Shown: positions 23,727-60,061 of the stretch, one piece after another | How the letters are laid out: each line of letters begins with the position of its first letter | Position numbering within the stretch: the stretch's first letter is position 1 | Assembly (NCBI GenBank): GCA_964016885.1 | Contig: OZ024748.1 | Coordinates: 57,970,001 to 58,034,000, forward strand | Source: Eledone cirrhosa | Lineage: Eukaryota | DNA: 64,000 bases | Direction: 5' to 3' | Notes under the pieces: model-generated | The model's input: only the letters and a program-made list of their open reading frames with translations | Database searches by the model: none | Told to the model about the DNA's origin: nothing | Translations under genes and position numbers: made by a program

Positions 23727-24462
23727 AAGCGCATGTTTGAATGTGTATGTTTATGCCCTGGATATTTATTTATATATTTTTCCCCCTAATTTGTTTGCCC
23801 GTTATTCGATTTCAGCCTCACTCATATTTCCTAATTTTTTTTTTCAAATTCATATTTAATAAACATTACATATTGGATTTGAAAATATGCACTGCAATCT
23901 TTAAATGGGATTCCGTTACTTTTTATATAAGAGATTCAACGGATATAGTTTATAGAAAATCCATACACAGTGAGACACACGTAAACAGGCACACTCATGT
24001 GTTTATACACCCATTATATATATAATATATATATATATATATATATATATATATATATATATATATATATATATATATATATATATATATAACGAAGGAA
24101 ATGTGGTAAGGAACCAGGTGAACCATAACGCACCAAAGTACTCAATACTTAAGGTAGTAGAGGGGGTAATATATATATATATAGTTATGTAATAAACAAC
24201 ATACGATAGATAATTATTTCATTTGCCAGTGGTTTCTTGAAGACATATATGTATATCTGTCTTCAGTCTTCAGAATATGTATATATGTCTTCAGTCTTCA
24301 GAAATAATAATATGTAATGTTTATTAAATATGAATTTGAAAAAAAAAATTAGGAAATATGAGAGTGAGGCTGAAATCGAATAACGGGCAACAAAAATAGG
24401 GGAAAAAATATATAAATAAATATCCAGGACATAAACATACACACATTCAAACATGCGCTTAT
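23727..24462. repeat. ~150-bp inverted repeat pair
   Basis: 23727-23875 is the near-exact reverse complement of 24309-24462. Confidence 0.9.
24091..24170 (-). mobile_element. 80-bp tail fragment of a (TA)n-resident PLE-like family
   Basis: Closely matches 31192-31272 (reverse complement) and 59870-59934; (TA)n on both sides. Confidence 0.8.
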
Positions 24463-25949
24463 AGGTAAGTATACGTAAACGTATACATTCTCACATAAGT
24501 GTATGTGCGTCTATCTAGAAATACGAACACACACATATAAACGTGTGATTTTTTGCTCACATATGCGCACACAGGCGCGCACACACACATGTACTCAATA
24601 ATAACGTAAAGTCTATATATACACACATGAATATCTCTCCATACATATATACACACACTTATATATATATATATACACAAGCACACATATAAAACAATAT
24701 ATATACGCACCCATATATGTACACACAAACACACACACATATATAAATATGTATACACACATACACATAGATACATATATTCATACACAAAAGTATCTAT
24801 ACATACGCGTACGTATATATACATGCACACACACATGCACACACACACACACACACACACGCACACACACACACACACACACACACACACACACACACAC
24901 ATACACACATATATATATATATATATATATATATATATATATGAACATACATATATTAATATGTACAAACCATTGGGAGATAGTTCAGGGACAAATATTT
25001 ATAAATAAGATTAACACAAATATGTAAGAAAATAAAAATCAATATATACGCATACATATATATATATATATATATATATATATATATATATATATATATA
25101 TATATATATATATATGTGTGTGTGAGTATGTAGGTATGTATGTGTATTCCAATATATGTTTAGTGTATTTCCGATTTAAATGTTTTCCTCTTCCACACTA
25201 TTCTTACACTGTTCTAACTTTTTACTATCACTCCAGCTCTGTAAAAAAGAATTAACAGCTGCCATGTTATGACATTTCTTATACTTTATTACGTGTGAAA
25301 CTGACATCCTCCTACTGTATCAGTTCCCTGTGTTACTTTTACTACTTGATATATATTATATATATATTTTTTTCCCCAATAAAAAAGTGTCTGTTGATCA
25401 AGCAAATACAGTATGAAGTAATAGATTGAAGGTGTATGCGTGAAGCCGCATATCTTTGTTAATATTATATGTATATATATATACATATATATATATATGA
25501 GTAAATATACCCATTTACTATGTTTTTTTAAACTCAATGCAATGAGGATCGATACCTTTCGTACGTATGTATGCATGTGCATATATCTATATATTTATTT
25601 ACTAGACATTTGCCTGTCTTTGAATTTTCACAATATCTGTTTGCATCGGAAGAGAGAACCATATTGCTTATAAGTCACAGAAGGAGTAGTGGTCGTTTCC
25701 TAAAATTTCTTTTCAGAAACATATGCGAAATCTCTCTGCATGAAATATGAATTTCAATCACGTGTTGTATTTTGTTTTCCTGGACCATTTTTGTTGGTAA
25801 AGGTATCACATTGCATTACTCACAACTAAGGACCTTTACTAGCTGTAGTGATCCATTTACGGTTTATCGACAGAAAATGATAATGTGATACAGATCACTG
25901 TATTCCTCTAGCTGAAATCTTTCTTTATAATATATATTGCATAATATGG

Positions 25950-26650
25950 AAAGGTTTAGACATTTTATAGAGTTGCTATAAAAATTCAAACACCATTCTA
26001 ACTGAATCAAATGCGCTGAATTTATCACTGGGTATGTGAAAATCTTTTATTCCTGGTTCCTTTATTTTATGGAACTTATTGATATATGCTGGGTCAGTTA
26101 TTTTATGGCTTGGAATCATATTCCAGGATTTGCTGTATATGGTGTCTGTCCGAGACTATGTATTCCCAAATAGTCAGTCAAGCATATGTTCTAAAGCGCT
26201 GATGGATTTGTCATACAAGTAGCTAGAATTGTCTCGATTCATCTTCATTTTGAGATGAAAATCGAGCAAGGAACGAACATTTTATTAAGAAGCCCTCATG
26301 CTTTTTTTATGTGGCTGTAATGTTTCTGGAAGTTTGGTGACTATTGATGGCTTTCTCAGATGAAATCGGTATGAGAATGCCATCCGCATATGTGTAGATG
26401 GTACCGTTGAGAGAACTGGTAAAAGCACTGCGGGTTATCTGTAGCATATAAGATGTGGCCAATATAACAGACAGACTTGAAATATTATAGACTGAATCCC
26501 TGAATAGGAAATAGATCGTGTTTATGACGATGGCCAACGGTTATTGAATACCTGAGGCTATTTCAATCAATTAGCGTTAATTACGGGAACAATACGCTCG
26601 TCTATGAATTTAATAAGCCGTGTGGAACGAAACTGTTAACGGAATCTACA
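25950..26650 (-). mobile_element. Decayed CR1/L2-type RT fragment
   Basis: ORF 26307-26537 contains SVILATSYML..TR...SLNGTIYTYADG, resembling GSVLGPLLF...LYADD. Confidence 0.45.
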
Positions 26651-58902: not shown

Positions 58903-59869
58903 TGTATATATATATATATATATATATATATATATATATATATATATATGTATGTGTATATATATATATATATATGTATGTGTATATATATATATATATA
59001 TGTATGTATGTGTATATATATATATATATGTATGTATGTGTATATATATATATATATATATATGTATGTATGTGTATATATATATATATATATATATATG
59101 TATGTATGTGTATATATATATATATATATATATGTATGTGTATATATATATATATATGTATGTATGTGTATATATATATATATGTATGTGTATATATATA
59201 TATATGTATGTATGTATATATATATATGTATGTATATATATATATATGTATGTATATATATATAAATATGTATGTATATATATAAATATGTATGTATATA
59301 TATATATGTATGTATATATATATATATGTATGTATATATATATATATATATGTATGTATATATATATATATATATATATATGTATGTATATATATATATA
59401 TGTATGTATATATATATATATGTATGTATATGTATGTATATATATATATATATATATGTATGTATATATATATATATGTATGTATATATATATATATGTA
59501 TGTATATGTATGTATATATATATATATATATATGTATGTATATATATATATATATGTATATATATATATATATATATGTATATATATATATATATATATG
59601 TATATATATATATATATGTATGTATATATATATATATATGTATGTATATATATATATATATGTATGTATATATATATATATATATATATGTATGTATATA
59701 TATATATATATGTATGTATATATATATATATATATATATGTATGTATATATATATATATGTATGTATATATATATATATATATGTATGTATATATATATA
59801 TATGTATGTATGTATGTATATATATATATATATATATGTATATATATATATATATATGTGTGTATGTGT
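58903..59869. repeat. Long (TA)n/TATG compound microsatellite
   Basis: Direct read. Confidence 0.95.
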
Positions 59870-60061
59870 AACGAAGGCGGTGTGGACCATAACGCACCAG
59901 AGTACTCAATACTTAGGGTAGTAGAGTGGGTAATAGGAAAATGTTTGACCCCGACGGCAGAGCTCAGGCCGTTTCGACGGCTATTTCTGAACTAAATTTA
60001 GTCCAGAAATAGATGTCGAAACGGCCTGAGCTCTCTGCCGTCGGGGTCAAACATTTTCCTA
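59870..60061. mobile_element. Fold-back insert: ~63-bp arms each with an HHR 3' half, plus tail
   Basis: Arms 59934-59996 and 59997-60061; GAAACGGC...GCCGTC-GGGGTC at 60018-60048; tail 59870-59933 shared with 24091 and 31192. Confidence 0.8.

Follow-up and report, generated by a model that had tools for sequence, protein, structure and literature searches.

Penelope-like elements (PLEs) are retroelements whose standard features include inverted 5'-truncated copies, a 30-40-bp tail and a bias towards microsatellites or (TA)n, and the role of their ribozyme has been called unclear (PMC8557442). Here, we analyzed a 64,000-nt stretch of Eledone cirrhosa contig OZ024748.1 (57,970,001-58,034,000, forward strand; hereafter "the window"), in which five short copies, A to E, of one repeat lineage were recognized. 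We consider it fairly probable that these copies are terminal fragments with two fixed ends, most naturally read as the pseudo-long terminal repeat (pLTR) ends of a PLE, with reverse transcription starting at those two RNA sites.

In the Poseidon element PAc from Anolis carolinensis, the purified PLE protein cuts both strands of AT-rich DNA, needs no homology and starts reverse transcription at two adjacent internal RNA sites that delimit the tail (PMC11167929). Penelope elements of Adineta vaga carry an optional 31-bp tail on one inverted pLTR, and show a 15-bp overlap of the inverted pLTRs in one element as well as palindromes at junctions (PMC3846280). The hammerheads of PLEs have a palindromic loop 3, an extra nucleotide before stem II and a U3-A8 core variant, and form opposite-strand pairs (PMC4209133).

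Positions within the copies were numbered relative to the predicted hammerhead cleavage site, directly after GTC. Breakpoints are resolved only to about 2 nt, since the ends merge into microsatellite. The copies are arranged as follows:

24090..24169, minus strand: copy A, a solo 80-nt tail (+20..+99) with a (TA)n tract on each side and 5/80 mismatches against the tail of B
31139..31180, minus strand: copy B, inverted tail-less arm (-23..+19), running into (TA)n
31179..31273, plus strand: copy B, direct arm (+5..+99), made up of a 15-bp overlap with the inverted arm (31179-31193) and the 80-nt tail (31194-31273)
59869..59996, minus strand: copy C, tail-bearing arm, with -44..+19 at 59934-59996 plus a 65-nt tail at 59869-59933
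59997..60061, plus strand: copy C, tail-less arm (-44..+19), ending in A(AT)n
1357..1743, plus strand: copy D, a 387-bp direct copy of a sister subfamily, ending at +19 into (TGTA)n, with a TA-rich tract at its 5' end
1632-1638 with 1725-1731, plus strand: stem I of the decayed whole hammerhead outline of copy D (sequence motif), with an altered core at 1639-1645 and GAAAC at 1703-1707
~61182..61692, plus strand: copy E of the same sister subfamily, homologous to D over its length and ending at +19 into TA(TG)n

The 80-nt tail was thus seen three times in the window (24090-24169, 31194-31273 and 59869-59933, the third 15 nt shorter), and a 21-nt tail motif gave three matches against 0.00 expected from 100 shuffles. 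Copies B and C are fold-backs in which the sense 5' ends meet centrally and the 3' ends face the microsatellite. In both, the tail is present on one arm only; the other arm, like D and E, is tail-less. The inverted arm of B contains the 3' half of the predicted hammerhead, consisting of GAAAC, stem III with a palindromic loop, GTC and the 3' strand of stem I, and its junction with the direct arm (31179-31180) shows a 2-nt microhomology located at the reverse complement of GAAAC. Copy C is a head-to-head palindrome without a spacer, centered at 59996/59997, whose two arms are separated by three substitutions and one 2-nt indel.

The first-pass annotation of this DNA had placed three related copies at the sites of A, B and C, with coordinates that were right to 1-2 nt. 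The hammerhead half that it saw in B was borne out, whereas the arm, given as 13 bp, measures 15 bp (15/15 identical). For C, its 63-bp arms hold for one arm, the other being 65 nt long, beside a tail of 65 nt. The tail strands of both fold-backs were said to run into the microsatellite; in C, the tail end enters a mixed CA/TA tract rather than pure (TA)n. Separately, copy A was observed to sit within a larger fold-back resembling a miniature inverted-repeat transposable element (MITE), at window positions 23724-24463, with 155-bp terminal inverted repeats that are 88% identical.

Two fixed end points are supported for this repeat lineage. Position +19 is an end in 4/4 copies carrying the cut-site motif (B, C, D and E), and +99 is an end in all three tail copies (A, B and C, with C counted across its deletion). 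The tail-less arms of B and C stop at +19 and their tail arms at +99, agreeing with the earlier statement that both tail-less arms end about 20 nt past the predicted GUC, and copy A starts at that inner boundary, as had also been noted. If ends were uniform over ~109 nt, the probability of four ends in one 3-nt window would be ~2e-5, and that of three ends ~8e-4, both values being post hoc and from a small sample. Under a null limited to the 12 TA steps in +5..+99, three inner ends would share the same TA with a probability of ~1/144.

The 19-nt spacing between cut site and inner end is kept despite sequence change: 6 of the 19 nt are different between B and C, as against only 2 of the first 47 nt of the tail, and D and E have yet other sequences there. 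The inner end carries TA within the element and the adjoining target is itself a TA repeat, while D and E end in CA. The TA microhomology to the target that the first-pass annotation read from both end points is not supported, as the breakpoint is ambiguous. Among the ten outer ends of A-E, nine adjoin a simple-repeat tract, compared with a background of 1171/59990 non-microsatellite positions with such a tract ≤8 nt away.

Copies D and E, both missed by the first-pass annotation, are direct. A 12-nt motif around the cut site had five matches in the window (0 expected), corresponding to B, both arms of C, D and E. The alignment of D with C scored 44, against 16.2 ± 3.3 for shuffles (0/300 as high), and that of D with E scored 114, against 27.7 ± 5.1. 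No inverted partner of either copy was detectable in the window, and both end at +19 without a fold-back, showing that +19 serves as a 3' end in the absence of inversion. At the far ends of these two copies, no hidden tail reached significance (131, 208, 58 and 155 of 300 shuffles). Copy E, whose 5' limit is set only by where its similarity to D stops, is interrupted by a truncated dispersed repeat resembling a short interspersed nuclear element (SINE) at 61328-61475, with an exact 18-bp target duplication (starts at 61328 and 61458), and measures ~381 bp once this insert is removed. Because the SINE-like repeat inserted into E, the copy is older than that insertion. GAAAC and stem III are deleted from E, and the deletion lies between short direct repeats.

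The predicted hammerhead motif of the A-E family fits the PLE hammerheads of PMC4209133. Stem I pairs in 13/14 cells (D and E), stem III pairs in 19/19 cells having letters on both sides, and loop 3 forms a palindrome of at least 6 nt in B, C and D, that of D being different in sequence. In D and E, the core of seven positions is similar to the U3-A8 variant, with alterations that make it probable that both ribozymes are inactive. A scan of the window for canonical hammerhead cores returned nine matches; because A-E have changed or absent cores, none of the matches falls on them. Folding was not clearly better than that of shuffles for the hammerhead regions of E, D and a further family, F (see below; 11, 79 and 46 of 200). 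The inversion junctions lie inside the ribozyme motif in B, C and family G (see below), which are three of the four fold-backs with a recognizable motif, F being the exception.

This anatomy matches the pLTRs of endonuclease-bearing PLEs, and the family is likely an ordinary new example with a mechanism that is already known. Three structural features of PLE pLTRs were found, namely the head-to-head inverted 5'-truncated copy (B and C), the one-sided optional tail and the microsatellite bias. As for the type I hammerhead, stems I and III, GAAAC, GTC and the palindromic loop are present, and the 5' core is altered or absent, with no Rfam match. PAc likewise has a hammerhead upstream of two fixed ends, a tail between them and an AT-rich target, and can be primed on both strands, but its tail is of the 30-40-bp type and one of its starts lies 111-118 nt into the open reading frame (ORF), in a stem-loop (PMC11167929). 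The A-E family, known from sequence alone, has instead an 80-nt tail, no stable stem-loop that stands out and no link to an ORF.

Similarly, Penelope of Adineta vaga resembles A-E in its head-to-head and solo pLTRs, one-sided tail, 15-bp overlap and junction palindromes, but has a 31-bp tail, a pLTR of ~200 bp and visible target duplications (PMC3846280), whereas A-E have arms of 15-63 bp, microsatellite targets and a solo tail. The minimal hammerheads of metazoan PLEs share with A-E the type I layout, the palindromic loop 3, the extra nucleotide before stem II, the U3-A8-like core and the opposite-strand pairing; A-E differ in a longer stem III (5 bp with a 9-nt loop), a long stem II extension and an intact core in no copy. 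Microsatellite targeting, an inverted truncated copy and a tail are also seen in the Neptune/Nematis/Hydra and Naiad clades (PMC8557442). Because Naiads, which have an N-terminal endonuclease, carry no canonical hammerhead and A-E carry a hammerhead outline, a clade with a C-terminal endonuclease would fit better than Naiad. Two motifs of the family gave 0 matches in the supplement of PMC8557442.

A PLE could have produced these copies in the following way. An endonuclease supplied in trans would nick both strands of a TA-rich microsatellite, and the ends suggest that one flank would prime complementary DNA (cDNA) at +99 and the other at +19, for which another PLE offers an in vitro precedent. 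The observed end positions imply that both cDNAs may halt early, often in the ribozyme region. Their 3' ends would then join at a self-complementary spot; two same-sense cDNAs would anneal only at mutually complementary spots, which would account for the 2-nt match in B and the palindromic center of C. The outcome would be the structure observed, in which two arms meet head-to-head and only one of them bears the tail. Copies D and E would follow from priming at +19 without priming at +99. Copy A may be a primary product, the +99 cDNA alone having been fixed after it stopped at the inner boundary, or may derive from a fold-back that later lost its hairpin by excision at the base.

The arms share template sequence (15 nt in B and 63 nt in C), so that the two cDNAs likely came from two RNA molecules or else needed strand displacement or folding back. 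Both arms of each copy carry the same variant, suggesting templates from one subfamily. The first-pass annotation had proposed two priming sites on one RNA, without recognizing in the pattern the known pLTR and tail signature of PLEs. Its two fixed ends stand, with D and E adding cases at +19 and PMC11167929 providing two start sites, but a single RNA is not established, since simple twin priming on one molecule would not suffice for the overlapping arms. Two defined reverse-transcription start sites are thus likely right, although already known.

In L1 twin priming, the two copied regions do not overlap and the inner site is variable. There, as proposed for A-E, both sides of the break prime on RNA and a 5' inversion results, but two regions of one RNA are copied (PMC2246262), whereas the arms of A-E overlap and their inner site is fixed.

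Several points weigh against the assignment to PLE ends with two priming sites. The catalytic core is intact in no copy, being altered in D and E, with B and C lacking the 5' half. Rfam gave 0 matches over the whole window at the gathering score, and a scan around D with E-values up to 10 gave seven matches, all below gathering scores and none of them a hammerhead. No ORF for a reverse transcriptase or endonuclease is linked to A-E in the window, as expected for copies that are all <400 bp; the GIY-YIG-like remnants found in the window are parts of other families. The sample comprises only five copies, D and E form a diverged subfamily, and the tail is known from A-C alone. At 80 nt, the tail is double the published 30-40, and it folds no better than shuffles (z 0.45, -0.70 and 0.28), whereas the lizard element starts in a stem-loop. 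From DNA ends alone, a priming site looks the same as a nuclease cut or an RNA 3' end.

PLE pLTRs come with an ORF for a telomerase-like reverse transcriptase and a GIY-YIG endonuclease, the tail corresponding to its N-terminal codons. In A-C, one reading frame is open in 3/3 tails, and the 15-nt deletion in C is a multiple of three, but this frame returned 11 candidates, none at an E-value up to 0.01, and nothing credible emerged from the two of three frames searched. A second frame, with a shared early stop, recalls what we take to be PLE N-termini, and is unsupported by database searches. The tail was also tried as an ORF N-terminus in a 32-residue read-through, and the three weak matches obtained (two repetitive unnamed proteins and a TPR protein) were judged to be chance. 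The tail motif had 0 matches in bacterial and archaeal genomes, a result that is uninformative for an animal repeat. No description of the A-E family or of solo-tail insertions was found in the literature searched, which was thin on subscription papers, had Repbase and Dfam outside its range and constitutes weak evidence; the family may be undescribed so far. The 80-nt tail, the solo tail, the 19-nt spacing across subfamilies and the junctions inside the ribozyme motif depart from published descriptions, and are leads from very few copies.

One alternative, which we regard as possible though on balance unlikely, is that A, B and C are a decay series. All three would have begun as C-like fold-backs with fixed ends, B then losing its center by asymmetric deletion and A its hairpin through slippage between short TA repeats at the base. 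Long palindromes are unstable, and excision of the palindrome at its base would leave exactly the tail. The 2-nt microhomology at the B junction and the deletion between short direct repeats in the same region of E would both fit such a history, as would the microhomology-mediated deletions reported in Penelope copies (PMC3846280). However, the palindrome of C persisted long enough to acquire four differences, another palindrome (family H, see below) survives as well, and A is not markedly more diverged than the other tail copies, with 3, 3 and 2 differences in 47 nt. The decay series is compatible with PLE ends as such and would replace the PLE account only for the three states, in which case the inner boundary of A would be uninformative on second priming. 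Accordingly qualified is the earlier description of one family caught in three states: the three forms are present, but may in part have arisen by decay from a single fold-back structure instead of by three outcomes of priming.

Rather improbable, in our judgment, is self-priming, in which one cDNA or antisense template folds at the palindrome and copies itself to +19, with no second priming on the target. Such a process has been proposed for junction palindromes (PMC3846280) and would agree with C being a palindrome without a spacer and with the arms of each copy having that copy's own +5..+19 variant. It leaves the fixed stop at +19 unexplained, however; B is not obtainable from a single fold-back without an extra deletion, and in D and E the +19 end occurs in the absence of an inverted partner.

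The fixed ends could also stem from cutting or from RNA ends, either because an AT-rich site within the element is where an endonuclease resolves the intermediate, or because the RNA has two 3' ends. We consider this quite improbable. The tail has been ascribed to endonuclease-mediated resolution (PMC8557442), and the inner end of A-C falls on an ATT, the motif cut by the lizard enzyme and one of three in +5..+99. Yet the 19-nt spacing is kept in D and E despite their different sequence, and a later in vitro study maps genomic ends to reverse-transcription start sites (PMC11167929).

Short hammerhead-bearing non-coding units related to PLE ends are also known as non-LTR retrozymes (PMC7229834; bioRxiv 10.64898/2026.07.22.740005), and a non-autonomous unit of ~385 nt with a retrozyme-like circular RNA would mean that the next monomer begins with the tail and that D and E are of unit length. 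The lengths of D (387 bp) and E (~381 bp without its insert) fall within the 150-450-bp units of non-LTR retrozymes (PMC7229834), which are related to PLE pLTRs (bioRxiv 10.64898/2026.07.22.740005), and position-restricted end-to-end tests gave a weak alignment of the tail, in one common register, close to the 5' parts of both copies (5-39 of 400 shuffles as high). In local or whole-length tests, however, this similarity was weak or absent (10-267 of 400), nhmmer did not find it at an E-value up to 30, and the aligned part begins ~40 nt inside D, with the 5' limit of E defined only by D. Moreover, these retrozymes are defined by head-to-tail tandem units, each with a hammerhead, and no tandem copies occur among the five motif matches in the window. 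We therefore hold this origin to be very doubtful.

Palindromes beside long microsatellites are hard to assemble. Fold-back chimeras at microsatellites arising in the assembly or library are nevertheless hardly credible here, since the arms of C differ by four events, the copies differ mutually and the same ends recur at five loci, although assembly problems have been mentioned for such structures (PMC8557442).

The window as a whole is AT-rich (23-37% GC) and microsatellite-dense, with many copies of one dispersed SINE-like repeat, and its repeat landscape resembles that of octopuses. Three further families, F, G and H, show a layout like that of A-E:

39558-40382: family F, with 212-bp inverted arms (39666-39876 and 40171-40382) that are 98.6% identical, ~108 extra nt on one arm and (TA)n at both ends
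6510-7457, minus strand: family G, a 5'-truncated PLE-like copy with a GIY-YIG-like ORF remnant at 6935-7231
41324-41610: family H, a palindrome with arms of ~110 bp, a 6-nt center, ~35 extra nt on one arm and TA repeats at both ends

Family F, which is probably young, has near 40288-40335 a minimal hammerhead that looks intact, with a core of the U3-A8 type, scoring 17.6 bits for Rfam Hammerhead_1 against a gathering threshold of 34. In family G, a minimal hammerhead-like motif lies ~55 nt from the 3' end, and the inverted arm, 68 bp long and stopping at GAAAC, may bear a longer extension that reaches (TA)n at 7458. The closest Atlas cluster to the G remnant is named GIY-YIG (0.95). The extra stretches of F, G and H, each known from a single copy, may be tails or flank, and the A-E tail showed no significant similarity to the extensions of F and G (290 and 50 of 300).

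Other parts of the window were also noted. Two minus-strand segments, 14626-15770 and 39140-39520, have in common a 3' end of 116 bp that includes a decayed minimal hammerhead-like motif and runs out into (TA)n. The former holds a frameshifted GIY-YIG-like ORF remnant, for which Atlas GIY-YIG-associated clusters at 0.94-0.96 are leads only. For the two endonuclease-like remnants in the window, neither word-index searches nor Pfam returned anything. At 16248-17004, one inverted and two direct copies of a ~150-bp repeat lie between (TA)n tracts around a 370-bp unique stretch, an arrangement that resembles direct-plus-inverted pLTRs, and no hammerhead motif was noticed there. A hammerhead-core-like motif at 48971-49100 (match at 49010) lies ~40 nt from (TA)n and is possibly a decayed PLE end. 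Additional palindromes or inverted repeats were seen at 27266-27329, 49195-49416, 35615-36115 and 54751-54923, and tandem clusters of the SINE-like repeat at 4788-5368 (period ~263 bp) and 61809-62741 (period ~198 bp).

Copies A-E illustrate cleanly, at the genomic level, a PLE feature that has been described before, and their value lies mainly in repeat annotation, where short fold-backs such as B and C can easily be mistaken for MITEs or simple repeats. In a genome with this many short PLE ends, it would be cheap to test whether each fold-back draws on a single RNA template or on two, whether solo tails arise as primary products and whether inversion junctions are concentrated in the ribozyme. 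A more speculative idea, to which we give little credence, is that the folded hammerhead serves as both ruler and roadblock. As a ruler, it would place inner priming 19 nt downstream irrespective of local sequence; as a roadblock, it would stall reverse transcription so that inversions form inside it. The solo 80-nt tail would then be the minimal insertion, arising where the two sites are engaged simultaneously by both target strands. If this were true, PLE hammerheads would gain a cleavage-independent function that is readable from genomes.

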